From Spirochaetia bacterium (GTDB taxonomy: Bacteria > Spirochaetota > Spirochaetia > SZUA-6 > Bin103): 64,000 nt of DNA. Below are positions 3,601 to 52,293 of this stretch, in pieces. Position numbers and translations under genes: made by a program. Within the stretch, counting starts at the first letter, position 1. Each line of letters starts with the position of its first letter. Under the pieces are notes generated by a model, which worked only from the letters and a program-made list of their open reading frames with translations, made no database searches and was not told the origin of the DNA. Location: positions 4,800,001-4,864,000 of the forward strand of contig CBDBDQ010000005.1 of NCBI GenBank assembly GCA_965203905.1, written 5' to 3'.

Positions 3601-4461
3601 AGAGAGGGTGGTTCTGTCGGCCCCGTGGCGTCCGCGGTGTGGGAGACTCCGGCTTGACGCCGCAGCGCCAGTCGGCGGTGTGGTACCGGCGGTGGTAGTG
3701 TAACCGCCCCGGATCACGACCGGAGCGCGGCGTTCGCCGAGGCGGCACACGCCAGCCGGGACTTACGGTAAAGGCGGTTCCTGCCGCTCCAGGGCGCAAG
3801 CTGCCGATGATAACAACTGAACGCGCACTACATGCTCTCGATTCGCTCCTGCGATAGCTTGATGAGGTCGTACAAGATGGGTCGTAGATCTGTTTTCCGC
3901 CGATCCGTGTACGTTGATTGAGTAGCGTTGGAGGGCGGCTATTATGACCTCCGGCGATTCGCCGTTCTTCAACCTTAGCAACGCCGCGTGCAATAGAGTC
4001 AATAGCTTGATCAGGGGAGCCTCGAAGTACTAAGTCTGATCGGGTATGGCGCGTGCATCGCTTTGACTTCCCGGGACTGGCCGCCGTCCTTGTAACGGCT
4101 GTCGTGGCTTTCGTCGCCTGCGCCCAGAAGTCCAGGTAGGAACGAGACGAGATTCTGCGATCGCTCGCCGGAAGGCTCGATAGCATTGAGTTGAAGGTCG
4201 AGGCGCTGGATGACGCGATGCCCCAAGGGTTTTGTGAGATCGGGCAACGGGTTTGATCGCTTGGGTACCAAGGTGAATCGCCTGGATGCCAAGGTGGATG
4301 CTGTCAGCGACGGCTTGCAGGACCTACGCCGCGACCTCGAGTCGCACGGCATGCTTCCGCCGTCCGAGGCAGTCGGATGATCGCGGCTGGGGCGCGGTGG
4401 GCGACCGGGAGAACCTAGTAGAATCGACCCCTGCGCCGGCCAAACAACTCAGTCTGCGCCA

Positions 4462-36028: not shown

Positions 36029-37408
36029 TCACGTCACCGAGTCTCGCGGTGCGGAGCGCTGCCGGCGCTCGTGGCGGTAACGGTGGTGAGCCGCGCAGCG
36101 CAAGACCAGGTTCCCCGGCTCCGCGCCGCCGCCCACCGCGACCGGAACGATGTGGTCCATCTCGAGGAAGAAGCGCGAGCCGCAGCGCCGCCCGCTGTCC
36201 CGGTCGACGAAGGTGCAGCAGCCCTGGTCGCGCCGCCAAACCTCTCGTTTCACCGCAGCCGGAATCGATCTGCCCGACGATCTGGCGGACTTCTCCACCG
36301 AAGTCGGCTCCCCTGCGCCGCCGGTCCTCCGTTCCGGTGTCGAACTACCGGTTGCCACGCGGGACTTCGCCGCCGAAGTCGGCTCCGCCGATCCTGCGCC
36401 CCCCGTGCTCCGCTCCGAAGTCGAATCGCCGGCTGCCACGCGCGGCTTCGGCGCCGAAGTGCTGTCTGCTGCCGGCTGCGCGGACCCCTTCGTCGCCGAA
36501 GGGGACACCGCCGCCGCCGCGGACTTCCCGGGCCGGTCCGGGTTCTCCGCCGCCGCCGCGACGCGATCTGCCGTCTCCCGCCCCGCTGTCCCGGACGCAC
36601 GCTCGTCACTGATAGAGTCTGACTTCCGCTTCCGGCGGCGCGGCCGGCTCGGATCGTGGCGCTCCAATCCCTCCCGCACCAGCCGCCCGACGAGTTGCCC
36701 GACCGTCAGGTGCGGATCCACGTGCGACAGCAGCTCCCGCAGCTGCTGCAATCCACGCTGGCACTCGGCGTCGATCACCGCCTTCAGCTCCCAGCGCCCG
36801 TCCCCCAGCGCCCGCAGCCGCTCGGCGGGCGCCGCCGCCTCGGGATCCACCTCGGCCAGCATCTGCTGCACCTGCCGGGTGCTCTTGCCCACCGCCTGCT
36901 CCACCAGCCGCTGCCGGGCGTGCGCATCCAGCACGGGCGATGGCGAACCCTCCGCCTCGCCCGGCGTCGCGGATGGAGCCGAGCCGGCACGCGGCGCGGC
37001 GCTGGTGCCGGCTCCCGGCGATCCGGCGGCGGTCCGTCCGCCTGCGCTGCGGTCCCAGCGCTCGAACGAGTTCTGCAACAGGGCGGCGTTGCTCAGGTTC
37101 AGCGAGCCGTCCTGCAGCCACGCGCGGACGCCGCGGGTTTCGCGGCACAGGCGCATGGCCTTGATACGGCGCCAAGCGGCTGCCTCGGTATAGCGCAGCT
37201 CGCGCACGGTGTAGTCGAACAAGCTGGAGTAGCCGAGGCGCAGATACAGGCGCCGAGCCTCGATCTCGCGCAGGTGGTCGAGGACGCTGAGCTGCAGCGC
37301 CTGCTCGTGGCGGGCGAGCATCCTGGTCTGTTCCAGCAGCACCTGGTCGGGGAGCACGGCGACGGTGGAGAAGAGTTCTTCGGAGGCTGCTTCTGTCACG
37401 TTCGTCAT
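36029..37408 (-). CDS. DUF222-like HNH endonuclease with an internal repeat linker
   Basis: N-terminal HLREIEARRLYLRLGYSSLFDY...YTEAAAWRRI; C-terminal IPAAVKREVWRRDQGCC...C...LEMDHIVPVAVGG....NL.LRCAAHH; 75-81 bp repeats at 36290-36460 (TSAxK units). Confidence 0.9.
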   Translation of the reverse strand: MTNVTEAASEELFSTVAVLPDQVLLEQTRMLARHEQALQLSVLDHLREIEARRLYLRLGYSSLFDYTVRELRYTEAAAWRRIKAMRLCRETRGVRAWLQDGSLNLSNAALLQNSFERWDRSAGGRTAAGSPGAGTSAAPRAGSAPSATPGEAEGSPSPVLDAHARQRLVEQAVGKSTRQVQQMLAEVDPEAAAPAERLRALGDGRWELKAVIDAECQRGLQQLRELLSHVDPHLTVGQLVGRLVREGLERHDPSRPRRRKRKSDSISDERASGTAGRETADRVAAAAENPDRPGKSAAAAVSPSATKGSAQPAADSTSAPKPRVAAGDSTSERSTGGAGSAEPTSAAKSRVATGSSTPERRTGGAGEPTSVEKSARSSGRSIPAAVKREVWRRDQGCCTFVDRDSGRRCGSRFFLEMDHIVPVAVGGGAEPGNLVLRCAAHHRYRHERRQRSAPRDSVT

Positions 37409-37634
37409 GGCGTAAATATACTACTGAATTGAAAATGCCTCGAACTTCCAGGTCTCGGACGGGCTTCGGAGATGGCTCAGGACGGGCGTAGCAGGGCGCT
37501 GTCGAGCCAGCGGGCGCGAAGTGTTCTCTGGAAAGTCGGAAGCGCCGCTACGGCCCGTAGAGGGCCGTCATGAGCGCGTCAGAATGCGTCAAGTGTTTTT
37601 CTTGCGAATTTTGGGGATTTCTTGGATCGTCAGC

Positions 37635-37800
37635 CGGCAGCACCGGCCGGGACATCTGCCGCACCGCCGCCTGCTGCGATGCCGTCAGAGCCGCCTCGAC
37701 GTTCACGGCAAAGACCTCCCGCCACGTCTTCAACGAGACGGCCGACACCCACACCTCCGGCGCCAGGTCCACGACGACGCCCATGTTGTTGACGACGCCC
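37635..37800 (-). pseudogene. Short-chain dehydrogenase internal fragment
   Basis: VVNNMG...W REVFAVNV...AL..SQQAAVRQM resembles the NNAG...W...F.VNV segment of SDRs. Confidence 0.45.
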
Positions 37801-38013
37801 ACCGCTACAGCAAGCAGCAGTGCTACGACCTCCAGGGCGAGATCAACTACTTCACGGCCAACCAGCAGCGCATGGACTACCCGCTGTATCGGTCGTGCGG
37901 TCTGCCGATCGGCAGCGGGGTCAGTCGAGGGGGCCTGCAAGAAACGTGGTCGCCAATCCACCCAGACCCAGATCGAGGCTGCCTGACCGCTACCACAGTG
38001 ACGGAATGCACCC
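37800..38013 (+). mobile_element. ISKra4/ISLre2-like transposase remnant and right end, copy 2
   Basis: INYFTANQQRMDYPLYRSCGLPIGSG.VEGACK (frameshifted) is the family motif; internal deletion; ends GGAATGCACCC. Confidence 0.75.
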
Positions 38014-38024
38014 GAATTGGCCTC

Positions 38025-38125
38025 GCGGCTTGGCATTCTGGCCCGGTCTGTGCCTGACGATCATCGTATTCAGCCTGGATCTGTTCGCCGCCGCCCTCGG
38101 GTACCTGCTCGATCCCCGGCCGGGG
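38025..38125 (+). pseudogene. 3' remnant of a DppC-type peptide permease
   Basis: AFWPGLCLTIIVFSLDLF..ALGYLLDPR matches the ends of 43351-44418 and 50246-51160. Confidence 0.75.
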
Positions 38126-38234
38126 GGTGGTGCAGGGCATCTCGCGGCTGATCGCGTCGTCCGGCGAGCGTCATGCTACACTCCACGAGAAGGCGCCGGG
38201 CCAACCCCAAGCGTCGTCAACGAGGATCGCAACC

Positions 38235-39821
38235 ATGCGTTCGTTCAACACTGCCGGTCCCGTCAAGCCCGACATGCACTATTGCATCCCGCCGCTTGAG
38301 CGCATCGACCTGGACGAGGTCCTTCGGCTGGTGCAAGACAAGAAGTACTTCGTGCTGCACGCGCCGCGGCAGACCGGCAAGACGTCGGTGCTGCTGGCGC
38401 TGGCCGAGGTGCTGAACGGAAGCGGCTACCGGTGCGTGTACGTTACGTTCGAAACCGCCCGCACCGCGCGCGACGACGTGCAACGGGCGATGCGCACGGT
38501 GCTCGCCACGCTGGCGTCGCAGGCGCGGGCGACGCTGGACGACGACTTTCCGGACGACATCTGGCCGGACGTTCTGGCGCGGGTCGGTCCGGACTTGGCG
38601 CTGGGCGTAGCTCTGGAGCGCTGGGCGCAGGCGTCGCCGGGACCGCTGGTGCTGCTGATCGACGAGATCGACACACTGGTGGGCGATTCGCTGCTGTCGG
38701 TGCTCCAGCAGCTCCGCGCCGGCTATCCCGGCCGTCCGGAGCGCTTCCCCCACAGCGTGGTCCTGTGCGGCATGCGCGACCTGCGCGACCTGCGCGACTA
38801 CCGCATGGGCGCTGCCGGCAGCCCGTTCAACATCGCCGCGAAGTCGCTGCGGCTGGGTGACTTCTCGCGCGAGCAGACGCTGGCGTTGCTGGCCCAGCAC
38901 ACCGAGCAGACCGGCCAGGCGTTCGCGCCCGAGGCGCTGGAGGCGGTGTGGACGCAGACCCGCGGCCAGCCCTGGCTGGTGAACGCGCTGGCGTACGGTG
39001 TCTGTTTCGAGAACAGGACGCTGCGCGAAGACCGTTCCCGCACGGTGGCCGCGGATGACATCGCGGCGGTGCGCGAGGAGCTGATCGTGAACCGGGTGAC
39101 GCACCTGGACTACCTGGCGGACAAGCTGCGCGAGGACCGCGTGCGGCGGGTGATCGAGCCGATGCTGAGCGGCACGCACCGGCACGCCTTCACGGACCGC
39201 GATGTCGGGTACGCGCGCGACCTCGGGTTGCTGGCCCGCGATGCGCCGCTGCGGGTGGCCAACCCGATCTACGCCGAAGTGCTGCCGCGCGAATTGGCGT
39301 GGGTGGCGCAGGAGACGCTGGAGCTGTCGCCGCCGCGGTACGTGAGGGCGGACGGCAGCCTGGACGCGGAGTTGCTGATGGCGGAGTTCCAGGGCTTCTT
39401 CCGTCGCCACTCCGAGCACTGGCGGACCCGCTTCGCGTACGAGGAGGCGTGGCCGCAGTTGCTGCTGCAGGCGTACCTGCAGCGGGTGGTGAACGGCGGC
39501 GGCCGCATCGAGCGGGAGTACGCGCTGGGGAGCGGCAGGGTGGACCTGCTGATCGTGTGGCCGCTGGCGGACCGGGTGCAGGAGTTCGTGGTGGAGTGCA
39601 AGGTGGTGCGCGAGCACGACGGGCTGGAGCGCGTGGTGGACGAGGGCGTGGAGCAGACGGCGCGCTACGTGGATCGCTGCGCGGCAGAGGCGGGGCACCT
39701 AGTGGTGATCGACCGGCGGGAGAACCGGAGCTGGGAGGAGAAGATCTACCGTATCCGGCGCCGCTCGGAGCATCTGCGGCGCGGCGGCGACGCCGTGCCG
39801 GTAGCGGTGTGGGGGATGTGA
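38235..39821 (+). CDS. AAA-like ATPase with a C-terminal PD-(D/E)XK-type domain
   Basis: FNTAGP, HAPRQTGKTS, LLIDEID, TRGQPWLVNAL, REYALGSGRVDL...VVECK...Q..RY. Confidence 0.88.
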   Translation: MRSFNTAGPVKPDMHYCIPPLERIDLDEVLRLVQDKKYFVLHAPRQTGKTSVLLALAEVLNGSGYRCVYVTFETARTARDDVQRAMRTVLATLASQARATLDDDFPDDIWPDVLARVGPDLALGVALERWAQASPGPLVLLIDEIDTLVGDSLLSVLQQLRAGYPGRPERFPHSVVLCGMRDLRDLRDYRMGAAGSPFNIAAKSLRLGDFSREQTLALLAQHTEQTGQAFAPEALEAVWTQTRGQPWLVNALAYGVCFENRTLREDRSRTVAADDIAAVREELIVNRVTHLDYLADKLREDRVRRVIEPMLSGTHRHAFTDRDVGYARDLGLLARDAPLRVANPIYAEVLPRELAWVAQETLELSPPRYVRADGSLDAELLMAEFQGFFRRHSEHWRTRFAYEEAWPQLLLQAYLQRVVNGGGRIEREYALGSGRVDLLIVWPLADRVQEFVVECKVVREHDGLERVVDEGVEQTARYVDRCAAEAGHLVVIDRRENRSWEEKIYRIRRRSEHLRRGGDAVPVAVWGM

Positions 39822-39905: not shown

Positions 39906-40402
39906 GATTCATTCCAAGGTTTCACTCGTGCCCACGATGCGTGACCATAGCACTCAGCGCTGCTACCAGTTGACGCAACCGGTGCCCCCCCCCCGGCAGC
40001 TTAAGTCTCGTAAATCTTTCAAACGTAAACAGTAGCACCAACCACACGGCTCTTTCGCCGGGCTCCGCCGCGGGCGCCGGCCGGCGCAGCCCGCTACCCG
40101 CCATCTCCAATCCCCCGGCGTTGCCGGACATGGGAACCAGCTACCGGCGAGCCGCCGCCACGCCCGAGGTCGGCGTGCGCCCGCGACCGTCCGGATCGCG
40201 AACGAGGGGGCCCGTGAAGAGGTAAATCCACGCCGCGGGCCGCGGCGGCGCCGTTGCCGCTGATCGCCCCGGGGGCAACTCGAAGTTGTCGCCCTCGTCG
40301 AAATCGCCTGCCCCGCAGAGGGTGCAGACCGGCACACAGGCCGCGGGAACAGGCGAGGGACCGGCACCGAATCGGATGTTCCCGAAACAGAGGAGATTCG
40401 TC

Positions 40403-42304
40403 ATGAGTCAGTACGGTCACACCGTGCCATGGAAGACGATGAAAACCGATACCCAAGCATCGCCCGGCGGGCGGCTTTTTCGGACCAGTCATGCATTACG
40501 AAACTGTAGACTATGGGTTGCGGTAATGATCGGGTTCGCGCTGGCCGCAACCGGCGCCTGGGCGTCGCCCGCCGGCGAGGAAGCGGCCGCTGCTGCGGAC
40601 AAGCCGATGGTGACCGACCCGACGACCGGAAAAATGGTCACCGCACCCGAGTACGGCGGCACGTTTACCTACGCGTACGCTTTGTTCGGTAAGAACACCG
40701 ACCCGTCGATCGAGGGGGGCTGGGCGGGCTTTCAGCTCTCCGGGGTCAACGAGAATCTCGTGCAGGGAGACTGGGGGCTGCCGCGGGACGAGTTCGGTTT
40801 CACCGGGAACTACGTGCCGACCTCGGTCTTCCGCGGTAACCTGGCCGCGAGTTGGGAGCAGCCGGACAACCGGACGTTCATCGTCCAGATCAAACCGGGC
40901 ATTCACTGGCACGACAAGGCGCCGATGAACGGGCGCGAGCTCACCGCCGACGACGTGGCGTGGGCCTACCGCCGCCATAGCGGCCTGCTCGACTTCAGGC
41001 CCGAGTACACCGCAACGCTCTTCGGGTTGCCGTGGGAGTCCATCGAGGCCCCCGACAAGTACACGGTCGTGTTCAAGCTCACCGAGCCGAGCCTCGGCAT
41101 GGTCCGTGCGATCCTGGCGGAGAACACCGCATGGGTGCTGCCTCGCGAGGTCATCGAACAGCACGGTGACTACACCGACTGGCGGAACGTAGTCGGCACC
41201 GGGCCGTTCATGCTGACCGAGCACGTCGAGGAAGTCTCGATGACCAGGACGCGTAATCCCAACTACCACGGCTTCGACGAGAAGTATCCGGACAACCGGC
41301 TGCCATACGTCGACGAGGTGAAGGCCCTGTTCATGGAAGAGGCGGCGACCCGCCTCGCCGCCATGCGCACCGGCCAGATCGACATGATTCACCGTTTCGG
41401 CGGCGGCACCACGATCGGTAAAGTCGAGGTGGTCAATGCGTTGCTGGGCACAAATCCCGACATCCAGGTGGGCACCTACTTCCAGCGTGCGCTGCAAGTG
41501 TCCGGTTTGAACATCCGTAAGCCGCCGTTCGACGACATCCGCGTGCGCCAGGCAATGCAGATGGCTCTCGACCGCGATGCGATCAACGACAGCTACTATG
41601 GCGGGTTCGCGCAACGGAAGCCTTCAGGCTATTTCGGAGACGCCAGTGGCCCCGTTTACACCCCATTCGAAGAGTGGCCACAGGAGCTCCAGGACGCATA
41701 CAGCTACAACCCGGAGGAGGCCGAGCAATTGCTCGACGAGGCCGGCTACCCGCGCGGCGCGGACGGGGTGCGCTTCGAGGTCACCTACGACTTCCGCAAC
41801 ATTGAAGTCATCGACCTGGGCTACGTCGAAATCGCAGCCGGCTACTGGAAGGAGATTGGCGTGGAGGTGGAGATCACCCTCCACGATACCGGCAGTTGGG
41901 TCCCTCGCCGCGTCGACGGGCTCTACGACATGACCACCGGCGATCAAGCCTGGGATCAGGACGTCAGCACGATTTTCGGCTGGTACGGCAATCTCGTGGA
42001 AGGACGGAAGAGTCATTTGACAGAGTATCTTGGCGGGGTTCCCGACCCCACCCTGATTCGGCTCTATCATGCGTTCAACGCCGCGACCGAAGAGTCGGAG
42101 CAGATACGAATTGCGAAAGAGTTCGACCTGTACGCCCTTTCTCAGCATTTTCAGGTATTCGGCTTCAAGTCGCCCCAATACCAGGTGGCCCAGCCATGGG
42201 TCAAGGGCTGGAACGGCGAGTCGTTCCTGCAGGACCAGGGCGATGTCCAGGTTTTTGCCCGGCTCTGGCTCGACCGCGACCTGAAGGCGGAAATGGGGTT
42301 CTGA
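40403..42304 (+). CDS. Peptide/nickel ABC substrate-binding protein (family 5)
   Basis: PEYGGT, GNLAASWE, GIHWHDKAPMNGRELTADDV, VGTGPF, PPFDDIRVRQA; start at 40403 has AGGAG upstream. Confidence 0.92.
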   Translation: MSQYGHTVPWKTMKTDTQASPGGRLFRTSHALRNCRLWVAVMIGFALAATGAWASPAGEEAAAAADKPMVTDPTTGKMVTAPEYGGTFTYAYALFGKNTDPSIEGGWAGFQLSGVNENLVQGDWGLPRDEFGFTGNYVPTSVFRGNLAASWEQPDNRTFIVQIKPGIHWHDKAPMNGRELTADDVAWAYRRHSGLLDFRPEYTATLFGLPWESIEAPDKYTVVFKLTEPSLGMVRAILAENTAWVLPREVIEQHGDYTDWRNVVGTGPFMLTEHVEEVSMTRTRNPNYHGFDEKYPDNRLPYVDEVKALFMEEAATRLAAMRTGQIDMIHRFGGGTTIGKVEVVNALLGTNPDIQVGTYFQRALQVSGLNIRKPPFDDIRVRQAMQMALDRDAINDSYYGGFAQRKPSGYFGDASGPVYTPFEEWPQELQDAYSYNPEEAEQLLDEAGYPRGADGVRFEVTYDFRNIEVIDLGYVEIAAGYWKEIGVEVEITLHDTGSWVPRRVDGLYDMTTGDQAWDQDVSTIFGWYGNLVEGRKSHLTEYLGGVPDPTLIRLYHAFNAATEESEQIRIAKEFDLYALSQHFQVFGFKSPQYQVAQPWVKGWNGESFLQDQGDVQVFARLWLDRDLKAEMGF

Positions 42305-42386: not shown

Positions 42387-43358
42387 ATGCGGGCGTATGT
42401 GATCAGACGGGTTCTGCTGGTGATCCCGACCCTGTTCATCGTCACCCTCCTGGTGTTCCTGTCGGTACGCTTCATCCCCGGCGACATCATCGACGTGATG
42501 GCCGCCCGGATGACCTTCAGCGGGAGCGGCTCGATCGACGAGGAGGCTCTGAAGAAACGGCTCGGGCTCGATAAACCGGTCTACGTGCAGTACGCGAAGT
42601 GGATCGGTGACATCCTGCTGCGCGGCACCCTCGGCCACTCGCTGTACAGCGGCTCGTCGGCCGGCGCCACGGTGGAGGAGAAGCTCGCCGGTCGGGCCGG
42701 GGTAACGGTCGAGTTGGGGCTGCTGGCGATCCTCACCGGGCTCATCATCGCCGCGCCGGTCGGCATCTACTCGGCGATTCGCCAGTACACGGTGGCCGAC
42801 TACGCCGGCCGGGCGCTCGCCATCTTCGGCCTGGCGACCCCCAATTTCTGGCTGGGGCTGATGGTGATGATCTACCCGGCCATCTGGTGGGGCTGGACGC
42901 CGCCGCTGACCCACGTCCGCTTCTCCGAGGACCCCTGGGCCAATCTCGGCATTCTGATCGTTCCCGCCCTGATTCTGGGGACCTACCTGGCGGCGAGCAC
43001 CATGCGCATGACGCGCACGATGATGCTGGAGGTGCTGCGCCAGGACTACGTGCGGACCGCTTGGGCCAAGGGCCTGAAGGAGCGGAGGGTGGTGCTGCGC
43101 CACGCGGTGAAGAACGCGCTCATCCCGGTGGTGACCCTGGTGGCGCTGCAACTTCCCATCATCGCCGGCGGCTCGGTGATCATCGAGAACATCTTCAATC
43201 TGCCGGGGCTCGGGCGCCTGATGCTGACCGCCCTCAACGAGCGCGACTACCCGGTGGTTTCCGGCATCAACCTGCTGTTCGCCTCGGTGGTGGTGGTGAT
43301 CAACCTCGGCACCGACCTGACCTACGCGCTGCTGGACCCGCGGGTGCGCTATGAGTGA
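42387..43358 (+). CDS. Peptide ABC permease (DppB-like)
   Basis: RFIPGD, LGLDKP...QY, QDYVRTAWAKGL, IFNLPGLGRL, LDPRVRY. Confidence 0.93.
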   Translation: MRAYVIRRVLLVIPTLFIVTLLVFLSVRFIPGDIIDVMAARMTFSGSGSIDEEALKKRLGLDKPVYVQYAKWIGDILLRGTLGHSLYSGSSAGATVEEKLAGRAGVTVELGLLAILTGLIIAAPVGIYSAIRQYTVADYAGRALAIFGLATPNFWLGLMVMIYPAIWWGWTPPLTHVRFSEDPWANLGILIVPALILGTYLAASTMRMTRTMMLEVLRQDYVRTAWAKGLKERRVVLRHAVKNALIPVVTLVALQLPIIAGGSVIIENIFNLPGLGRLMLTALNERDYPVVSGINLLFASVVVVINLGTDLTYALLDPRVRYE

Positions 43359-44418
43359 GCCGGTCCCGGGCGATGCGGCCGGGGCCGGCCGCGCAGGCGC
43401 AGGCGGAGACGCAGGCCGTGGCGCAGGCGGTGGTGGCGGCCCAAGCGGCGGCACACGTGGCGGACCCTCCGCGGCGGGCGCCACTGCACCGGCGCGCCGG
43501 CGACTGGTGGCCAGCTTCCTGTTACGGTTGCTGAAGGAGCAGCCGCTGGGAGCCGTTGGCGCCCTCATCGTGCTGGCGTTGGTGTTGATCACCATCTTCG
43601 CCGCGCAGCTCGCGCCCTACGAATTCGACCGCGGCCGGGTGCAGGACCGGATGCAGGGTCCGTCGGCCGCGCACCTGCTGGGCACCGACCACGTCGGCCG
43701 CGACTTCCTGAGCCGCCTCATCATCGGCGCGCGCCTGTCGATCACGGTCGGGCTGGCGGCAACGTCGCTGAACGTGATCGTCGCGCTGCTGATCGGCGGC
43801 ACCACCGGCTTCGTCGGCGGCCGGCTCGACATCTACGCACAGCGGTTCGTGGACGCGTGGATGTCGTTTCCGGGGCTGCTGTTGCTGCTCACCATCATGT
43901 CGATCGCCGGGCGCGGCGTGGTGCAGATCATCGTCGTGCTCGGGGTGGCCGGCGGCATTCCCGCGTCGCGGGTGGTGCGCGGCGCGGTGATCGGGGTCAA
44001 GGAGAACGCCTACTTCCAGGCCGCGGAGGCGACCGGCGCCCGCACGCTGCGCACGCTGATCCATCACGTGCTGCCCAACATCGCGGCGCCGCTGATCGTC
44101 GTGTTCAGCATCAACGTCGGCAGCGTGATCATCGCCGAGGCGTCGCTGAGCTTCCTGGGCTTCGGCCTGCCGGCGACCGTTCCGAGCTGGGGCGGCATGC
44201 TGAGCCGCGAGGGCCGCCAGTACATGGAGATTGCGCCGCGGCTGGCGCTGTGGCCGGGCCTGTGCCTGACGGTGACGGTCTACGCCCTCAACCTGTTGGG
44301 CGACGCGGTGCGCGACCTGCTGGACCCGCGCCTGCGCGGCGCCGCCGGCCGCTACGGGGGCGGGCGCCGCCCCCGCCGCACGCCGCGCCGCCGTGGCGTG
44401 CGCCCGCGCCGTTCATAA
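43351..44418 (+). CDS. Peptide ABC permease (DppC-like)
   Basis: HLLGTDHVGRD, HVLPN, EASLSFLGFG...PSWGGML, GDAVRDLLDPR. Confidence 0.93.
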   Translation: MSEPVPGDAAGAGRAGAGGDAGRGAGGGGGPSGGTRGGPSAAGATAPARRRLVASFLLRLLKEQPLGAVGALIVLALVLITIFAAQLAPYEFDRGRVQDRMQGPSAAHLLGTDHVGRDFLSRLIIGARLSITVGLAATSLNVIVALLIGGTTGFVGGRLDIYAQRFVDAWMSFPGLLLLLTIMSIAGRGVVQIIVVLGVAGGIPASRVVRGAVIGVKENAYFQAAEATGARTLRTLIHHVLPNIAAPLIVVFSINVGSVIIAEASLSFLGFGLPATVPSWGGMLSREGRQYMEIAPRLALWPGLCLTVTVYALNLLGDAVRDLLDPRLRGAAGRYGGGRRPRRTPRRRGVRPRRS

Positions 44419-44769
44419 GCCTTGCGTAGCCGTGCCGGCGCCGGTTTTGGGGCGCTATCTCGCGGACGCTGGCTGAGCCGCCACGGCGCCGGCTGTCTCG
44501 GTTGTCAGCTTACTTTGATCTGGCTGGTTGACCCGAGTCATGTCGGCGAGTGGGGCAAACGGCCGGCCGCGCCACAGTGTCGGGCAGGCGCCGAAGATCG
44601 GCAGCTTCGAGGGCATGGGCAACGACGAGCTCACTCCGCTGTGGTGCGCGGTGGCCCATCGGCTTGACGCAGGCCAATCACTGGAGTCACAATCCAGCCG
44701 GCACCATGAATGCCGGCTTCGACGCGCTCGAGCCAACTGGACATTGGGACGGGATAGATGGGACGATGG

Positions 44770-45035
44770 GATCCGCTATCGGTGGCGCCGGCTCGGTTCA
44801 TCGCCAACCGGCATGCGGACCGCCCACGCCCTTCCCGCCGACCACAACCGCGCCGGATCCCCGCCCGCAACTGACTGCCCGCAAAACCTACCGCCGGCGT
44901 TGCCGGTCAACCACGCTCGTGACTCCCTCAACCACGGGAGGTAAAGATGATACTGAAAGAACCGCACGCGCGCGCGGCGTGAGCCGGGGTGAACCCGCTG
45001 AGTCACACGCCGCGCGCTTCACAAATTGACTCAGA
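44770..45035 (+). repeat. Conserved structured leader, copy A (homologous to 46961-47272)
   Basis: Shared blocks GGTGGC.CCGGCTC, ACCGGCATGCGG, CTGACTGCCCGCAAAACC, CCGGCGTTGCCGG, the uORF and its stems, and TTGACTCAGA. Confidence 0.85.
44947..44982 (+). CDS. Candidate leader peptide MILKEPHARAA (uORF copy 1)
   Basis: GGGAGGT Shine-Dalgarno then ATG; 11 codons; conserved at 47181-47216. Confidence 0.55.
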   Translation: MILKEPHARAA

Positions 45036-46681
45036 TCGCGCCAGGCCAAGCCTGGGAGGGGAGGAAGATGTGAAGTATGCATCAGAAACCTATCGTAGCC
45101 ACCCTGTGGGTAGCCAATCCCACCCGGTAGAGCGTAGCCGGCAGCCGGAAGCGAGTCTTGCGTTGGTCGGGGGCGACCCCGGGGACGAAGCGTAGACAGC
45201 GACCACAGAAGCCGTGTTATTGAGCCACGAAAGAATAATTGCTGGGGCCTTCGTCGTTCTGAGAGCGGGGGCAGCACCGACGTGCCGAAAACAACGGCTT
45301 GGCACGGAGGCCCGGCCGGGGTCGGAGAGCAGGGCAAATGTGGAGCGGGCGGCCCAGGAACCTGGGAGGTCTCGTTGTCTCCATGACGGGAGAGCCGGAG
45401 GGACGCCGGCGGACCAAAGTCCGGGCCTGTGCGGAGGAGCATCCGAGGAAGCACAGGAGCGAATAGACGGGTGCCGACATGGTATCGCCAAGCGAAGGCA
45501 ACGAAGCGCGGCGAGAAGGGCAGCGAGAAGTCTTAGCGCCCCCGTAGTACCGATGAAGTCGGGGAACGGTCGCCGCACCGGACCCGGCGGAGGGAAGGAG
45601 GGCGTCGAGTTGCAGAACCGTTGCGGGGAAACACGGAAGGTGCAATGGAATCTGGGAGCGTGTTAACGAAACAGCAGCGGATAGCAGAGAACGCGAGAAT
45701 CCATCCGGAAGTAGCGTTTACGTCGCTGGCGTATCATATGGATCTGGAGTGGCTGTACGAGGCCTACCGGCGCACCCGGAAGGACGGTGCAGTGGGCGTT
45801 GATGAACAGACCGCCGAGCAGTACGAGGAACACTTGGAGCAGAATCTGAGATTACTCCTGGAGCGCGCGAAGGCAGGTACGTATCGGGCACCGCCGGTGA
45901 GGCGGGTGCACATACCGAAGGGGACAAGCGGGGAAACCCGGCCCATCGGGATACCGACTTTCGAGGACAAGATACTCCAGCGGGCGGTGCAGATGCTGCT
46001 TGAGCCTCTGTACGAGCAGGACTTTTTGGACTGTTCGCATGGCTTTCGGCCCGAGCGATCGCCGCACACGGCGCTGGAGACACTCTGGAAACAGACGTTG
46101 CGGCAAGGGGGAGGATGGGTGATAGACCTGGACATACGCAAGTTCTTCGACACCCTGTCACACACCCACCTACGAACGATTCTCGGGCAGCGGATGCGGG
46201 ATGGAGTGGTTACGCGGCTTATTGGCAAGTGGCTGAAAGCCGGCGTCATGGAGAATGGCGCTGTCTCACACGCGGGGCAGGGTACGCCACAGGGCGGAGG
46301 GATATCTCCGCTACTGAGCAATATCTACCTGCACGAAGTACTCGACCAATGGTTCACCGGGGTAATGCAACGGCACCTGCGGGGACGGGCATTCCTGGTA
46401 CGATTTGCAGACGACGCGGTAATGGTATTCACCGATCGGCACGATGCCGAGCGGGTATTGAATGCACTGCCGAAGCGATTCGCAAAGTACGGGCTGACCG
46501 TTCACGAAGAGAAGACCGAGATGCTGCGGTTTGAGCCACCGGAAGGGGAAAGGGCGGGAGCACGACGGGAAAGTTTTCAGTTTCTGGGGTTCACCCACTA
46601 CTCGGGACGCTCGCGCAAGGGGAAATGGATCGTGCAGCGGAAGACCGCGAGCGACCGACTTACCCGAGCGCTACGCGCTGT
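45036..46681 (+). mobile_element. Group II intron, 3'-truncated (no domain V/VI seen)
   Basis: Typical 5' ribozyme motifs (GCGA...GAAGCGTAGACAG, TATTGAGCCACGAAA, GGAACCTGGGAG, AGAAGTC...CGTAGTACCGATGAAG..GGGGAAC) precede the RT ORF; no GAGCCG..TGCG..GAAA..CGCACGT-like domain V follows it. Confidence 0.85.
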
Positions 46682-46730
46682 ACAGTCAGCGCAGTGGCGG
46701 GTTGCCGGTGACCTTCGCTCACCCCGGTGA
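45645..46730 (+). pseudogene. ltrA: Group II intron reverse transcriptase/maturase, truncated in domain X
   Basis: AVGVD, PPVRRVHIPK, RPIGIPTFEDK, SHGFRP, DIRKFFD, GTPQGG.ISPLLSNIYL, RFADD, FQFLGFTH; homology ends at RLTRALRAV. Confidence 0.9.
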
Positions 46731-46743
46731 CCCCCACGAGTCG

Positions 46744-46772
46744 TTGACGGCGCGCCGCGCCTATGCTAGCGT
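46744..46772 (+). promoter_or_regulatory. Candidate sigma70 promoter of peptide ABC operon 2
   Basis: TTGACG-17 bp-TAGCGT with an extended TGn. Confidence 0.55.
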
Positions 46773-46960
46773 GCCTCACTTGGGGTTCGACGGATGCCGA
46801 TGAAGCGCCATGATAACAGTCAGCGCAGTAGCCGGTTGGCGGTGACGCAGCCGATGTACCCCCCCCTTACTTCTCGAACCGAGAAACAACTAACCGCTCG
46901 GGCTGATCGCCCCCTACGCGACCCCGCGCACGCCGTCGCCTTCACCACCGCCGTAGCTGT

Positions 46961-47325
46961 CGGTGGCACCGGCTCCGTCCATCGCCGAACCGGCATGCGG
47001 GGCGCCCCCACCCTTCCCGGCGGCGAGGGCAGCCGTCCCGGATCGCTGCCCGCGACTGACTGCCCGCAAAACCCACCGCCGGCGTTGCCGGCCATTCAGA
47101 CTCACTGCTGCTCAAACCACCGCCACGCGTGGCGTTGTAACGCAGATCCCGACGTAAATCTAGAGAAGAAGGAGGTTCGAATGACACTCAAAGAACCGCA
47201 CGCGCGCGCGGCGTGAGCCCGGGTGATCCCGGATGAGTCACACGCCGCGCGCTCTCAGGAAGTTGACTCAGACTTGCCGCCCGCGTTGGGCGGGCGCGAA
47301 AAGAGATCGACAACGGGAGTTGAAT
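46961..47325 (+). promoter_or_regulatory. Conserved structured leader, copy B, upstream of the binding-protein gene
   Basis: Homologous to 44770-45035; continues with the hairpin GCCCGC-gttgg-GCGGGC and the GGGAG ribosome-binding site. Confidence 0.7.
47181..47216 (+). CDS. Candidate leader peptide MTLKEPHARAA (uORF copy 2)
   Basis: AAGGAGGT Shine-Dalgarno then ATG; 10/11 residues identical to copy 1, with a synonymous change (CTG/CTC). Confidence 0.55.
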   Translation: MTLKEPHARAA

Positions 47326-49149
47326 ATGCAGATCGCAAAACTCACATGGACCTTCGCAGTAGCGTTGGTCCTGGTGCTGACCGCCACCGGCCTCTGGGCC
47401 ACTGGCACAGAAGAGCAGCCGACAGCCGCAGCTGCCGACAAGAGGAATGTCACCGACCCCGCCACCGGCCAGACGTGGACCGCGCCAGAGTATGGCGGGA
47501 CACTCACGCAGGGCGTTAGGGCCTTTCCCCCAAATAATAATAGTGACGGGTGGTCGGTTCATCCTGGCTGGGCGGCTCACCTCATCAGTGGCGTTAATGA
47601 GAAGCTAGCCTTCGTCGACTGGGGACAATCCAGGGATATATGGACAGGCACACAGCCTTGGACCGCCGAGATGTTTATAGGGAATCTGGCTGAAAGCTGG
47701 TCAACGCCCGACGACACAACGTTCATCTGGCACATCCGCCAGGGCGTTTACTGGGACAATAAGGCGCCGGTGAACGGTCGGGAGTTCGATGCCCATGACG
47801 TCGAATATAACTATCACCGCTATTTGGGTCTGGGCGATTTCACCGAAGACGGACCTAGCGCCCATCAGAGTGCTATAACTGCGTCTGGGAGAGCGGGTGT
47901 AGAGATCGAATCGGTAACAGCCACCGACAAATGGACGGTTGTTGTTAAGCTCAAGCCTCACGTCCTTGTGTTGCAGCATATGCTCAACAACTACTTGATG
48001 ATCTACGCCCCAGAGCAAATCGATGAATACGGCGACGCTAAGGATTGGAGGAACCTGGTCGGCACTGGTCCCTTCAGACTGACTGATGTCGTGGAGGGCA
48101 GCTCGGCAACCTGGGAGAAGAATCCTAACTACTGGGGCTACGACGAAAAATTCCCGGAGAACCGCTTGCCCTATATTGACAAGTTAAGGTCCTTGTTGCT
48201 ACCAGACGTGTCAGCACGTCTGGCAGCTATGCGTACGGGCAAGATTGATATGCTGAGCAACACCGGCGACGCCTATATACAATCTCTCGACGATGTAGAG
48301 AGCCTCCAGAAAACCAACCCTGAAATCGATGTGTGGCCCACTTATGCCTGGATAGCGGGCGCATTCCTTTTCAACCAGTCTCTGCCGCTCACTGCCGACG
48401 TCAATGTGCGCAAGGCACTGCAGATGTCAGTGGACCGCGAGACAATTTCCGCTACCTACTATAAGGGTTGGGGAGATCCAACACCTGGTGCGCTATTCAA
48501 TCAACGCTTTACAGGGTATTCCTGGCCAATGGAAAACTGGCCCGACGAGGTCAAGCGTGAGTATGAGTATCGACCGGATGACGCAGAAGCGTTGCTTGAT
48601 GCGGCCGGATATCCTCGCGGCGCCGACGGCTATAGGTTCAAGGTCAAGCTTGCCTATAACGAGGCGTTCGATTCGACCTATCCAGAAATCATCATGGGGT
48701 ACTTCGAAGCCATTGGCGTTGACAGCGAGCTTGTTATCCTGACTCGTGCTGAAGTAGGAGCTGCCCAAAGGGCGGACACGCACGAGTGGCACCTAGCGGA
48801 TGGGGGATGGATGGGCCTTACAACCCACTTTGGGATCGGGTCTGTAAGCCAAAACATTGATGGCTTCAGCTTCAACAAAGCGAAGGACCCGCGTATGGAG
48901 GCCCTGTATTATGCTGCCGAAGAGACTATGGACATTGAGGAGTATAAGAGTATTCAAAGACAGGCCGATGAGATCACTGTAAGGGAGCACTGGGGCCTAT
49001 CCAAACCCTTCTCCCCTATCGTTTTCGTGAGCCACCCGTGGGTCCAGGGCTATTTCGGTGAAGATTCTTTGGGAAGGGGTGAACGTAATACCTTCTTGGC
49101 CCGCCTCTGGATTGATAGTGAGCTGAAGGAAGCAATGACGGGAAATTAG
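47326..49149 (+). CDS. Peptide/nickel ABC substrate-binding protein (family 5), paralog 2
   Basis: Signal peptide MQIAKL...TGLWA, PEYGGT, GNLAESW, VGTGPF, LPYIDK, VRKALQMSVDR. Confidence 0.92.
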   Translation: MQIAKLTWTFAVALVLVLTATGLWATGTEEQPTAAAADKRNVTDPATGQTWTAPEYGGTLTQGVRAFPPNNNSDGWSVHPGWAAHLISGVNEKLAFVDWGQSRDIWTGTQPWTAEMFIGNLAESWSTPDDTTFIWHIRQGVYWDNKAPVNGREFDAHDVEYNYHRYLGLGDFTEDGPSAHQSAITASGRAGVEIESVTATDKWTVVVKLKPHVLVLQHMLNNYLMIYAPEQIDEYGDAKDWRNLVGTGPFRLTDVVEGSSATWEKNPNYWGYDEKFPENRLPYIDKLRSLLLPDVSARLAAMRTGKIDMLSNTGDAYIQSLDDVESLQKTNPEIDVWPTYAWIAGAFLFNQSLPLTADVNVRKALQMSVDRETISATYYKGWGDPTPGALFNQRFTGYSWPMENWPDEVKREYEYRPDDAEALLDAAGYPRGADGYRFKVKLAYNEAFDSTYPEIIMGYFEAIGVDSELVILTRAEVGAAQRADTHEWHLADGGWMGLTTHFGIGSVSQNIDGFSFNKAKDPRMEALYYAAEETMDIEEYKSIQRQADEITVREHWGLSKPFSPIVFVSHPWVQGYFGEDSLGRGERNTFLARLWIDSELKEAMTGN

Positions 49150-49225: not shown

Positions 49226-50230
49226 ATGAGAGCCTATCTCATCAGGCGGTTATTGCTCATAATCCCCACCCTGTTCATATTGACCATCATAGTCTTTGTT
49301 ACGGTCCGCTTTATCCCCGGCGATGTAATAGACACAATGGTGGCTGAGATGAATACTTTCCAACCAGGGACGATTGACCGTGAAGCTCTGGAGCGTCAGC
49401 TGGGACTAGACGTGCCTGTCTACGTGCAGTATGGACGCTGGATAGGAGTGTTGCCGACCCCTGATCGGATTACCGGTGAGCCCCACTTTAAAGGCCTCCT
49501 CCAGGGCACCTTTGGCGAATCACTGTTTGGCGCTGCTTTTGCGATAGAGGAGATCATAATCGGGAGATTGCCAGTAACCATTGAGCTTGGTGCTCTGTCA
49601 ATCGTAATTGGGCTCGTTATAGCCCTTCCCGTCGGCGTCTACTCGGCGATCCGCCAGGACACCGCCGCCGATTACGTAGGGCGCACCGCCGCCATCATCG
49701 GCTTGGCAACGCCGAACTTCTGGCTCGGAATCATGGTCATGCTCTACCCGGCAATCTGGTGGGGCTGGTCGCCGCCGATGGAGCTGATTCCCTTCAAGGA
49801 AGACCCGCTGGGGAATCTCGGGATGTTCCTCATTCCGGCCCTGATTCTGGGCACGGCCCTTGCTGCCAGCACCATGCGGATGACCCGCACCATGATGCTG
49901 GAGGTGCTCAGGCAGGACTATATCAGGACCGCCTGGTCGAAAGGGCTCAGGGAACGGGTAGTTGTCATGCGGCACGCCATCAAGAATGCCCTCATCCCGG
50001 TAGTTACCTTGGTCGGCCTGCAGCTCCCCCTCCTGGTAGGTGGCTCCGTTATCATGGAGCAAATATTCGCTCTGCCGGGGATAGGCCGTATGTTTGTGGA
50101 TGCGCTCGATAGCAGAGACTATCCGGTAGTCTCCGCCATAAACCTGGTTTTTGCTGCCGTGGTTTTGGGGATCAATCTCGTGATCGACCTGATTTATGCT
50201 TTCCTGGACCCCAGGGTTCGGTATCAATAA
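49226..50230 (+). CDS. Peptide ABC permease (DppB-like), paralog 2
   Basis: Same motifs as 42387-43358. Confidence 0.93.
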   Translation: MRAYLIRRLLLIIPTLFILTIIVFVTVRFIPGDVIDTMVAEMNTFQPGTIDREALERQLGLDVPVYVQYGRWIGVLPTPDRITGEPHFKGLLQGTFGESLFGAAFAIEEIIIGRLPVTIELGALSIVIGLVIALPVGVYSAIRQDTAADYVGRTAAIIGLATPNFWLGIMVMLYPAIWWGWSPPMELIPFKEDPLGNLGMFLIPALILGTALAASTMRMTRTMMLEVLRQDYIRTAWSKGLRERVVVMRHAIKNALIPVVTLVGLQLPLLVGGSVIMEQIFALPGIGRMFVDALDSRDYPVVSAINLVFAAVVLGINLVIDLIYAFLDPRVRYQ

Positions 50231-50245
50231 AGGAAAACGGCGAGT

Positions 50246-51160
50246 ATGAGTGATAAACCATCAGCAGGAAGTGAGCCAAAGAAACGTGCCCGGCTGGCTG
50301 ACTTATTGATGAGGCTGATCAAGGAGAAGCCACTCGGTACGTTCTGCGGGATTGTCGTAGTGATACTGCTTTTCGTGGCCATCTTCGCCGATGCACTGGC
50401 GCCTTATTCCTATAAGGAAATGCACCTGATCGACAGGCTTAAGGGCCCGTCATCCCAGTATCTTCTGGGTACCGACCAGGTGGGACGGGACTTGCTCAGC
50501 CGCCTGATGATCGGGGCTCGTATCTCCGTATTTGTCGGCCTGGCCGCGACTGCGCTGAATGTCGTCGTCGCTGTCCTGGTCGGCGGCACTTCCGGATTCC
50601 TTGGGGGTAGATTGGATCTGGCGGTGCAGCGCTTTGTCGATGCCTGGATGGCGTTTCCGGGATTGCTGCTGTTGCTCACCATCATGTCCATTGTGGGAAG
50701 GGGTACCCTCCAGATCATCGTGGTCCTGGGGATCGCCGGAGGCATCAGCGGCTCGAGAGTCATGAGAAGCGCCGTGATCGGTATCAAGGAGAATGACTTT
50801 TTTGTGGCGGCTCAGGCCGTGGGCACCCCGACGAGCAAAATCCTGAGCCACCATGTCCTGCCCAATATCATGGCCCCGGTCATCATTGTCTTCTCGATCA
50901 ACATCGGAGGGGTGATCATGTCCTTGGCCGCTCTGGGCTTCCTCGGCTACGGTCTGCCACCCACCATTCCTGACTGGGGCGGCATGCTCAGCCGGGAAGG
51001 GCGCAGGTACATGGAGCAGGCCCCGTGGCTGGCGCTCTGGCCAGGGCTGTGCCTGACGATTGTGGTGTACAGTTTCAACATGTTGGGGGACGCCCTCAGG
51101 GACCTGCTCGATCCGCGGCTGCGGGGTGGCGCCGCGGGCAGCGGCGCCACGTCGGTTTGA
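50246..51160 (+). CDS. Peptide ABC permease (DppC-like), paralog 2
   Basis: Same motifs as 43351-44418. Confidence 0.93.
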   Translation: MSDKPSAGSEPKKRARLADLLMRLIKEKPLGTFCGIVVVILLFVAIFADALAPYSYKEMHLIDRLKGPSSQYLLGTDQVGRDLLSRLMIGARISVFVGLAATALNVVVAVLVGGTSGFLGGRLDLAVQRFVDAWMAFPGLLLLLTIMSIVGRGTLQIIVVLGIAGGISGSRVMRSAVIGIKENDFFVAAQAVGTPTSKILSHHVLPNIMAPVIIVFSINIGGVIMSLAALGFLGYGLPPTIPDWGGMLSREGRRYMEQAPWLALWPGLCLTIVVYSFNMLGDALRDLLDPRLRGGAAGSGATSV

Positions 51161-51781: not shown

Positions 51782-51846
51782 AAGGCTGAGTATAGCCTTC
51801 CGCGCCACTCGACGTGAATGTCGTGCGTGTGTAAAAGCGCTAACCA

Positions 51847-52293
51847 CCGACAAGTACACGGTCGTGTTCAAGCTCACCGAGCCGCGCCTCGGCATGGTCC
51901 GTGAACCATGCGCACCGGCCAGATCGACATGATTCATCGTTTTGGCGGCGGCACCACGATCGGTAAAGTCGAGGTGGTCAAGGCGTTGCTGGGCACCAAT
52001 CCCGACATCCAGGTGGGCACCTGCTTCCAGCGTGCGCTGCAAGTGTCCGGTTTGAACATCCGTAAGCCGCCGTTCGATGACATCCGCTGCGCCAATTGCT
52101 CGACGAGGCCGGCTACCCGCGCGGCGCGGACGGGGTGCGCTTCAAGGTCACCTACGACTTCCGCCGTCGAGACCGCAGCCGGCTACTGGAAGGAGATCGG
52201 CGTGGAGGTGGAGATCACCCTCCACGATACCGGCAGCTGGGTCCCTCGCCGCGTCGACGGGCTCTACGACATGACTACCGGCGATCAAGCCTG
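51847..52293 (+). pseudogene. Multiply deleted near-identical relic of the binding-protein gene at 40403-42304
   Basis: Four joined segments match ~41052-41108, 41361-41548, 41726-41797 and 41824-41952. Confidence 0.9.

Follow-up and report, generated by a model that had tools for sequence, protein, structure and literature searches.

What is done by a compact block of sequence that stands twice in a 64-kb stretch of spirochaete DNA, and in which a strong Shine-Dalgarno (SD) sequence and an 11-codon upstream open reading frame (uORF) run straight into a stable RNA hairpin? The stretch, here called the window, comprises 64,000 nucleotides (positions 4,800,001 to 4,864,000 of contig CBDBDQ010000005.1, assembly GCA_965203905.1, Spirochaetia bacterium). 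On balance we favor the view that the block is a functional, uORF-bearing cis-regulatory leader of paralogous genes for family-5 solute-binding proteins (SBPs) in a GC-rich lineage of Spirochaetia, a view drawn from comparison of sequences. Of the two copies, copy 2 is the intact working 5′ leader of the gene for SBP B, and copy 1 is an orphan, the dead 5′ half of such a leader. A preliminary description made from the window's letters alone had reported both copies with their SD sequences, uORFs, 12-bp stems, inner hairpins, and complementary heptamers TGAGTCA and TGACTCA, and every one of these elements lies where it was placed:

44937-44942, + strand: copy 1, SD sequence GGAGGT, read directly
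44947-44982, + strand: copy 1, uORF MILKEPHARAA, 11 codons, TGA at 44980-44982, read directly
44970-44981 and 45006-45017, + strand: copy 1, stem P1, a perfect 12-bp GC helix of GCGCGCGGCGTG with CACGCCGCGCGC, about -30 kcal/mol
inside the P1 loop, + strand: copy 1, inner hairpin GGG-TGAA-CCC
44999-45005 and 45027-45033, + strand: copy 1, TGAGTCA and TGACTCA, the latter 9 nt past the stem
45027-45035, + strand: copy 1, TGACTCAGA, partner of TGAGTCA, its last six nucleotides CTCAGA (45030-45035) being the intron-binding site IBS1 of an intron
47171-47176, + strand: copy 2, SD sequence GGAGGT, read directly
47181-47216, + strand: copy 2, uORF MTLKEPHARAA, read directly
47204-47215 and 47241-47252, + strand: copy 2, stem P1, 12 bp, about -32 kcal/mol
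inside the P1 loop, + strand: copy 2, inner hairpin CCGGG-TGAT-CCCGG
47234-47240 and 47264-47270, + strand: copy 2, TGAGTCA and TGACTCA, the latter 11 nt past the stem
within 47264-47299, + strand: copy 2, unoccupied insertion site ending in CTCAGA, and GC hairpin P2 (about 47274-47299)

The two uORFs differ at 2 of 36 bases, one change being nonsynonymous (I/T) and one synonymous (CTG/CTC), and a 23-mer and a 19-mer common to both copies each occur exactly twice in the window, where shuffled sequence would be expected to give 0.02 and 0.10. Relatives were found in other genomes. A scan with a degenerate pattern for KEPHARAA plus stop, which by its nature fixed codons 4-11 and the stop in 19 of the 22 copies eventually assembled, returned 21 loci, 19 of them in three metagenome-assembled genomes (MAGs) labeled "Spirochaetia bacterium" (12 in OZ253572.1, six in CBDBOV010000006.1, and one in OZ242313.1); the genome of the window is a relative of these three and not among them. 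The other two loci, in Longimicrobium (L004) and Omnitrophota (L019), were set aside as chance matches, having neither the structure nor a covariance-model match. That model (R1), built from an alignment (A5) of the 21 copies then known and searched against the window and about 120 kb of loci, added one copy, L015:89-222 (127.9 bits), so that 22 are known in all, 20 outside the window and 13 in a single genome. Run over the whole window with filters off, it scored copy 2 at 135.4 bits (47167-47303) and copy 1 at 117.3 bits (44933-45063) and found no third copy in the 64 kb, the next best match reaching 11.7 bits.

The genes behind the copies are of one kind. An SBP_bac_5 ORF (Pfam, about 600 aa) follows all 19 scan-found MAG copies in the same orientation, and 20 of the 22 copies overall precede such an ORF, with the main ATG 107-165 nt past the uORF stop. 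Both exceptions have been orphaned by mobile DNA: copy 1 by an intron and L015:89-222, whose uORF reads MILKEPHARVA with a change that yields a G.U pair in the stem, by a DDE transposase. The proposal that the block lies upstream of binding-protein genes is therefore right for copy 2 and not for copy 1, which lies downstream of an ATP-binding cassette (ABC) operon, operon A, and is followed by a group II intron. Nor is the label "peptide-binding" established, since SBP B scores below every curated NCBIfam cut-off; its nearest solved relatives in the PDB, all distant, are heme-, dipeptide-, nickel-, and opine-binding proteins. The transporter genes are these:

40403-42304: SBP A, first gene of ABC operon A
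42387-43358 and 43351-44418: permeases of operon A, with copy 1 downstream of the operon
47326-49149, + strand: SBP B, family-5 solute-binding protein, 607 aa, signal peptide present (Pfam SBP_bac_5, 4.1e-57); SD sequence GGGAG at 47315-47319, ATG at 47326, 110 nt past the copy 2 uORF stop
49226-50230 and 50246-51160, + strand: two ABC permease genes of the SBP B operon (BPD_transp_1; Opp/Nik-type permease models)

At least 209 protein clusters in public data contain the SBP N-terminus that goes with the leader, and the few of those whose source is named are substrate-binding proteins from Spirochaetaceae or from unclassified "bacterium" MAGs, or peptide/nickel SBPs. In L013 the SBP ORF (3170-4213) ends at 347 aa and its Pfam match covers profile positions 2-177 of 368; this gene is probably disrupted. 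The L015 orphan leader (89-236) breaks off after GAGAGCAG, with a DDE transposase ORF (520-1902) following on the other strand and an intact leader some 2.9 kb further downstream, an arrangement that mirrors the one in the window with a different mobile element.

As the preliminary description had supposed, the block is not a known Rfam family. Rfam 15 gave only the intron and three chance-level matches for window positions 44500-47700 at E<=10, only introns for the 19 loci at the gathering threshold, and a best match of 24.6 bits, against a gathering score of 51, for the long-form leader of L016. The copy 1 block had no match in a plasmid collection searched in distant mode, and a search for SBP proteins mis-called with a translated leader as N-terminal extension (residues 1-47 of the L016 ORF) gave four candidates, none significant. 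In the literature the peptide words had no match, and a broader search on leader peptides, SBPs, uORFs, and spirochaetes gave nothing relevant among the 15 of 32 matches that were listed.

Is the block kept by selection? The preliminary description thought so on the ground that the DNA just upstream of the SD sequence differs between the window's copies, and for this pair the argument is mistaken: beyond a 49-nt indel similarity resumes upstream of the SD sequence (44775-44935 against 46956-47120), with 129 of 160 aligned bases identical. The idea fares better across the family, where 20 of 22 copies stand before the same kind of gene and where, in an alignment of 20 loci (the 19 MAG copies and copy 2, with the truncated copy 1 left out), conservation begins sharply at the SD sequence. 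Mean pairwise identity is 0.04-0.58 upstream of that point, then 0.90, 0.80, and 0.70 in the next three 50-nt windows, the first of these values being inflated by the 22 of 27 pattern bases that the search fixed, and 0.29-0.84 in the coding sequence (CDS). Among the segments that the search left free, UGAGUCA together with the 3′ strand of P1 is 0.957 identical, the linker 0.456, UGACUCAGACUGG 0.805, the loop 0.714, and P2 0.643. Among the 20 SBP proteins amino-acid identity is 50%, and at the four-fold sites of their genes it is 0.63 (over 27,246 site pairs), or 0.67-0.77 in the adjoining signal-peptide codons. Because identity swings this sharply over tens of bases beside old paralogues, purifying selection, and not gene conversion alone, should be responsible; and because the sequences upstream sort into no fewer than four unrelated classes, the notion of a kept block holds for the family as a whole. 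The 5′ ends are mosaic: the region upstream of copy 2 is 94% identical to L015, yet the CDS of SBP B is closest to L021 (81%), which indicates recombination among paralogues near the leader.

The uORF is retained without exception. All 22 copies have a strong SD sequence, a start codon (21 ATG, one GTG) exactly 9 nt before the pattern, 11 codons, and TGA, with no indel; the search left the start codon and the frame of codons 1-3 free, and the retention of start, length, and stop supports the preliminary description, codons 4-11 and the stop being search-fixed in 19 copies. Codon 2 varies (ATA in 18 copies; ATT, ACA, AAA, and GTA in one each), giving the peptide M[I/T/K/V]LKEPHARAA; codon 3 varies only synonymously (15 CTC, seven CTG), and codon 5 is GAG in two copies. 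The peptide ends in ...HARAA-stop, with no proline among its last five residues. The first 15 nt are 27-33% GC against 64-65% for the whole element, which suggests that the start site is held open. Recoding of the UGA by selenocysteine insertion, readthrough, or frameshifting was considered and rejected by eye, for indels in the loop and linker break any downstream frame between copies, and no X XXY YYZ slippery site precedes P1.

The core of the element, about 110 nt, begins with the SD sequence, the uORF, and P1, within which are an inner hairpin that varies and an invariant UGAGUCA that immediately precedes the 3′ strand of P1. In every copy the 5′ strand of P1 is made of codons 8-11 and the UG of the UGA stop, and the helix, which closes a loop of about 24 nt with the nested hairpin, folds at -25 to -35 kcal/mol (mean -32.8 over the 22 copies). 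The core then continues with a linker of 9-14 nt of free sequence and ends with UGACUCAGACUGG and the GC hairpin P2; between this core and the SBP start, most copies have a third module, GAGAGUA...UACUCUC. This longer 3′ part, which runs from P2 into GAGAGUA-GCCAG-GGAGCGG...CCGCUCC-GCAA-UACUCUC, is present in 17 of the 19 gene-proximal MAG copies, and copy 2 and L018 are shorter. L010, L022, and L023 carry a tandem duplication of the P2 hairpin unit (CGCCCGCGTTGGCGGGCG-like), some 100-150 nt past the uORF start. Of the cells that make up the named structure, 94.5% can pair in the 21 copies of A5 and 92.5% in A4, an alignment of 15 long-form copies from which w1, w2, L010, L018, L022, and L023 were left out; slid partners pair in 27-58%. 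The inner hairpin is present in 21 of the 22 copies, with other pairing sequences in L007 (GGGC/GCCC) and L012 (CCCGA/UCGGG) and no hairpin in L017. L008 and L014 have lost the central GAGUC/GACUC pairing, which the other 20 copies retain. Variation in P2 consists mostly of C-to-U changes that give G.U pairs, the signature of an RNA made from the sense strand, and there are compensatory examples in L012 (GGAGUCA/UGACUCC), in the GGAGCGG hairpin (GC to AU), and in the start-site hairpin (CG to GC). A long-range pairing of CCGCACGC with GCGUUGCGG called by RNAalifold was not adopted, one side being search-fixed and the changes on the other uncompensated.

The preliminary description had further proposed that UGAGUCA and UGACUCA form a pseudoknot or a mutually exclusive switch. 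A linker of 9-14 nt is what the loop spanning a 12-bp helix needs in an H-type pseudoknot, judged by the geometry of frameshift pseudoknots, and such a fold is plausible sterically and fits the sequences. When the uORF and 10 nt beyond it are masked, the UGAGUCA:UGACUCA hairpin appears in the minimum free energy fold of 12 of the 22 copies. Small local hairpins also cover the SBP start codon or SD sequence (CAUAC...GUAUG; AUAGG/CCUAU in L023), and the predicted folds give them no link to the uORF. Both heptamers (44999-45005, 45027-45033, and their copy 2 equivalents) contain GANTC (GAGTC/GACTC), the recognition site of CcrM-type methyltransferases.

How might such a leader work? Since the stop codon lies inside the helix, P1 would have to open for any ribosome that is translating codons 5-11 or standing at the stop. 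We suppose that the uORF is translated; that the RNA, when free of a ribosome, would adopt P1 and possibly the H-type pseudoknot; and that a ribosome melting P1 would leave UGAGUCA and the 3′ strand available for other pairings, such as the UGAGUCA:UGACUCA hairpin. Occupancy of the uORF, whether determined by initiation rate, by pausing at the Ala and Arg codons, or by slow termination at UGA, would then set the fold of the downstream leader, and that fold would control SBP expression, be it through access to the start site, through premature termination, or through the stability of the mRNA. As the leader is common to at least 13 paralogues in one genome, we propose that it would provide one common input to a regulon with differing promoters.

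Several observations weigh against this proposal and temper our preference for it. Five free wobble positions of the uORF (CCN, GCN, CGN, GCN, GCN) never vary, so that the constraint is at the level of nucleotides, and any selection on the peptide is putative. The KEPHARAA-plus-stop pattern excluded copies with broken peptides and any variation in the 5′ strand of P1, and the sole copy found free of this bias, L015:89-222, carries the nonsynonymous change A10V and is an orphan. Covariation is minimal: two double-change pairs in A5, a number reached by 5 of 500 shuffles, and in A4 three pairs (117 of 500 shuffles) and five cells (17 of 500), the sequences being too alike and the 5′ strand search-fixed; the RNAalifold covariation term is +0.24. 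Masking the uORF raises pairing of the SBP SD sequence in some of the 20 gene-proximal copies, lowers it in others, and leaves it unchanged in most. Behind none of the hairpins is there an intrinsic terminator with a U tract, and a + strand scan of 44400-47400 found none. Finally, the comparison draws on four closely related genomes whose paralogues have mosaic 5′ regions, so that gene conversion contributes to the similarity.

What else could the block be? A rival that keeps the coupling to the ribosome makes P1 a transcriptional pause or terminator hairpin, which a coupled ribosome would prevent from forming, thereby allowing readthrough into the SBP gene; in the absence of such coupling P1 would form and transcription would stop. 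This is the logic of pyrBI, in which a ribosome closely trailing RNA polymerase prevents a terminator hairpin, and the position of the stop codon in the 5′ strand of a helix of about -33 kcal/mol fits it, as do the U-rich linkers after P1 in some copies (UUUUUUGG in L018, UUUUAG in L015, UUUUCAU in L020). We nevertheless judge it unlikely: in most copies there are only 1-4 U among the 8 nt past the stem, conservation of the linker is low (0.456), no U tract follows P1, P2, or P3 in most copies, a loop of about 24 nt with a nested hairpin is untypical of terminators, and P1 was not called by the + strand terminator scan. Improbable to a similar degree is a constitutive leader that senses nothing, in which a mini-ORF and stable hairpins would block 5′ decay or offer ribosomes a place to stand by or load, the block being kept since it raises the expression of every paralogue. 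The strong SD sequence, the AT-rich start, and the very stable 5′-proximal hairpins are as this reading would have them, the folds predict no connection between uORF occupancy and the main start site, and the short variants (copy 2, L018) retain the core without the third module; what the reading leaves unexplained are the invariant UGAGUCA/UGACUCA, a free linker whose length is constrained, and a stop codon placed exactly inside a helix. A further reading, in which the nascent M-x-LKEPHARAA would itself be the sensor, slowing or blocking its own release according to a small molecule or to the amino-acid or peptide status of the cell, seems to us quite unlikely. Arg at -2 and Ala at -1/0 would occupy the peptidyl-transferase center with UGA in the A site, and the paused ribosome would keep P1 open and so switch the fold of the leader. 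If this were true, a single ribosome-based sensor would co-regulate a dozen or more paralogous importers per genome in uncultivated spirochaetes, and the peptide would be related to the SecM/RAPP class, acting without proline and by arrest at termination.

The remaining rivals deny the RNA a role. Conservation might act on DNA, as in the operator of a regulator, or be non-adaptive, as in a tract homogenized by gene conversion with an incidental uORF; the invariant wobble positions, the mosaic 5′ regions (copy 2 upstream 94% to L015, CDS 81% to L021), and the fact that TGAGTCA and TGACTCA are exact reverse complements, both with GANTC, could all be so explained. Gene conversion alone would not, however, yield an identity that goes from 0.96 to 0.46 to 0.80 within 50 nt beside signal-peptide four-fold sites that are only 0.67-0.77 identical, and neither version accounts for C-to-U changes that retain G.U pairs on the sense strand only or for an SD sequence, ATG, 11-codon length, and stop retained in 22 of 22 copies; we regard this explanation as very unlikely. 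The preliminary description had itself raised the further case of a dispersed repeat resembling repetitive extragenic palindromes or miniature inverted-repeat transposable elements (REP/MITE), and a sequence present at least 13 times in one genome with GC-rich palindromes invites the comparison. It is largely refuted and now scarcely credible: 20 of 22 copies stand in one fixed context, at a like distance and in like orientation before one gene family, the two exceptions are explained by the intron and the DDE transposase, no terminal inverted repeats or target duplications were seen, and no copies were found elsewhere in the 64-kb window or in the roughly 120 kb of loci. We return, then, to a uORF-bearing cis-regulatory leader as the reading that we favor.

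Why does one of the window's leaders stand before no SBP gene? Copy 1 has been cut short by an intron, and the DNA around the junctions can be laid out as follows:

44775-44935, + strand: upstream module of copy 1, a promoter-region repeat of the leader family, 92% identical to L010 2785-2946
45036-46683 (3′ end approximate), + strand: group II intron fragment, 3′-truncated, with D1-D4 at 45114-45331
45621-46730, + strand: ORF of the intron reverse transcriptase (RT), RVT_1 1.3e-34, RT-homologous up to residue 354 of 369
46684-47170, + strand: normal upstream region of copy 2, with two tandem repeat units of about 126-134 nt, from 46684 and 46818

In L010 the sequence matching the copy 1 upstream module precedes an intact leader and SBP gene. 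Homology between copies 1 and 2 ends exactly at the 5′ end of the intron (after ...TTGACTCAGA), which alignment with related plasmid introns places at 45036 (UCGCGCC here, GUGCGCC in Halomonas, UUGCGAC in Methylocystis). The intron matches Rfam RF02005 (D1-D4-6 type) at 45114-45331 with 131.3 bits against a gathering score of 49, and the Rfam alignment puts UCUGAG (45258-45263) in a terminal loop of domain I; CTCAGA (45030-45035) is its complement, and the two form a pair of exon-binding and intron-binding sites (EBS1/IBS1). The preliminary description had taken TGACTCAGA in copy 1 for a pairing partner only; it is also this IBS1 junction. The RT is 60% identical to LtrA of a Halomonas plasmid, with homology stopping at aa 354, near nt 46683, and the next stretch, 46684-47170, is 94% identical over 487 nt to L015 2498-2981, where a homologous leader is preceded by DNA without an intron; what remains of the intron is therefore a 3′-truncated fragment, joined by a deletion to the normal upstream region of copy 2. 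Features of a complete intron are correspondingly absent, there being no maturase (X) domain in the RT ORF, where Pfam finds RVT_1 only, no domains V-VI, and no 3′ splice site; a missing RF00029 match is uninformative, full-length intron relatives having given none either. Relative to the D1-D4-6 introns of Rfam, the element is alike in D1-D4, in the RT, and in the pairing of an EBS1-like loop with the 5′ exon, and differs in starting with UCGCG rather than GUGCG or UUGCG and in lacking a maturase domain and a 3′ end, as befits a dead fragment. We picture a group II intron that homed directly after CTCAGA, and a later deletion that would have removed its 3′ part, the rest of the copy 1 leader, and the gene behind it. 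While intact, a sense-strand intron could, we infer, have spliced out and left the copy 1 leader functional. Duplication of the block by the intron was considered and rejected, both flanks belonging to a wider repeat family (92% to L010; 94% to L015).

Opposite-strand 5′ fragments of a related group II intron abut the uORF SD sequence in L006 (about 3045-3458), L008 (about 2777-2980), and L013 (up to about 2979). Read as reverse complement, their junction is ...GCACCTCCT followed by GTGCGCCGG, the 5′ exon there being the anti-SD-like CACCTCCT, and L012 and L017 have the identical junction sequence without an Rfam match. The leader family thus seems to be a recurrent target of group II introns on both strands. 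Conserved leaders can serve as homing sites for such introns, and the orphan half-leaders that result can mislead a reading made from sequence alone.

The surroundings of the leaders hold further repeats. The tandem repeat of about 126-134 nt upstream of the leader has two units in the window (46684-46955) and 4.4 in L015 (2105-2661), each unit bearing promoter-looking TTGAC(A/G)...TATGCTAGC-like motifs; a sigma-70 promoter scan of 44400-47400 gave a single weak site at 44664-44693 and none near copy 2. A small hairpin, CCGGCGTTGCCGG, occurs three times in the window (40115, 44894, 47079), each time upstream of an SBP-type leader region, and 40066-40163, upstream of SBP A, weakly resembles the upstream module (65% over 110 nt), SBP A itself having no uORF/P1 leader. 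Pieces of SBP A (41049-41952) recur at 51844-52293, downstream of operon B, with 96-99% identity (repeat families D3, D7, D8, and D13), probably through a recent partial gene duplication or as a pseudogene fragment. A gamma-glutamyltranspeptidase gene (54719-56539) lies downstream of the transporter cluster, and upstream, at 36029-39821, are an ORF with an HNH-endonuclease domain and an AAA-ATPase/PD-(D/E)XK ORF.

That one leader is kept before 13 or more importer paralogues per genome points to a global layer of post-initiation control over nutrient uptake, and control of this sort would be invisible to annotation that is based on proteins. RNA-level gene regulation in spirochaetes is poorly known, and these GC-rich Spirochaetia of 5-7 Mb exist only as MAGs. 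The element is nevertheless compact, with a defined uORF, one dominant helix, and a candidate pseudoknot, and this makes it amenable to direct testing.

Among known systems, arrest peptides, whose logic the preliminary description had offered as one possibility, differ from the leader in their defining residues. RAPP-like arrest motifs, as set out in the part of PMC12992588 concerned with them, have a C-terminal R-(A/G)-P-(P/G) or RAGP core with an essential proline. RAPP and SecM share with the leader a small upstream ORF and an Arg-Ala near its C-terminus (R-A-A before the stop here, R-A-G before P and R-A-P before P in those systems; PMC12992588, PMC10951233, PMC10951299). The leader peptide differs in being without the prolines that define the class in that part of PMC12992588, in having 11 aa and no localization signal, and in preceding SBPs and not Sec/YidC components. 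Another parallel is the repY-repZ (repB-repA) system of IncI1/IncB plasmids, in which translation of a leader peptide permits a pseudoknot that is required for translation of the main gene (PMC8053102, in its passages on this control, which cite Asano and Mizobuchi 1998 and Praszkier and Pittard 2002). The likeness lies in the coupling of leader translation to a pseudoknot between a hairpin loop and downstream sequence, putative in our case. In those plasmids, however, the leader ORF runs up to the start of the main gene, the sequence that pairs in the pseudoknot adjoins that gene's SD sequence, and there is competition from an antisense RNA. In our element, the distance from UGACUCA to the SBP SD sequence downstream is about 50 nt or more (44 nt in copy 2).

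The leader offers a series of alternative pairings, namely P1, UGAGUCA:UGACUCA, CUGGC:GCCAG, and GAGAGUA:UACUCUC. In the trp, his, and pyrBI attenuators, too, the end of a leader ORF overlaps the first strand of such alternatives. The trp and his systems have a terminator with a U tract, and the leader, with none found before the gene, fails that defining test; they also have a run of regulatory codons, where the leader has only its terminal A-R-A-A, whose codons are forced by the GC helix as well. In the erm and cat attenuators, a leader ORF of about 10-20 codons with a strong SD sequence contributes its 3′ part as one strand of a hairpin, and a stalled ribosome forces re-pairing. The differences from erm and cat are that no hairpin in the predicted folds of our element shows uORF-dependent sequestering of the SBP start, which is 107-165 nt away, and that the genes controlled there confer resistance, whereas a multi-copy element stands here before importer genes. 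With ermC, cat, and cmlA the leader shares a short SD-bearing ORF, the placement of its 3′ part in a hairpin, and, as we propose, ribosome-forced re-pairing, and by this analogy it would work most like the erm/cat translational attenuators. The general marks of a leader-peptide cis-regulator are present in it, an SD-bearing ORF on the gene strand that is conserved in position and frame and that overlaps P1: the leader family is real and previously undescribed, and it belongs to a known kind of uORF/leader-peptide cis-regulators.

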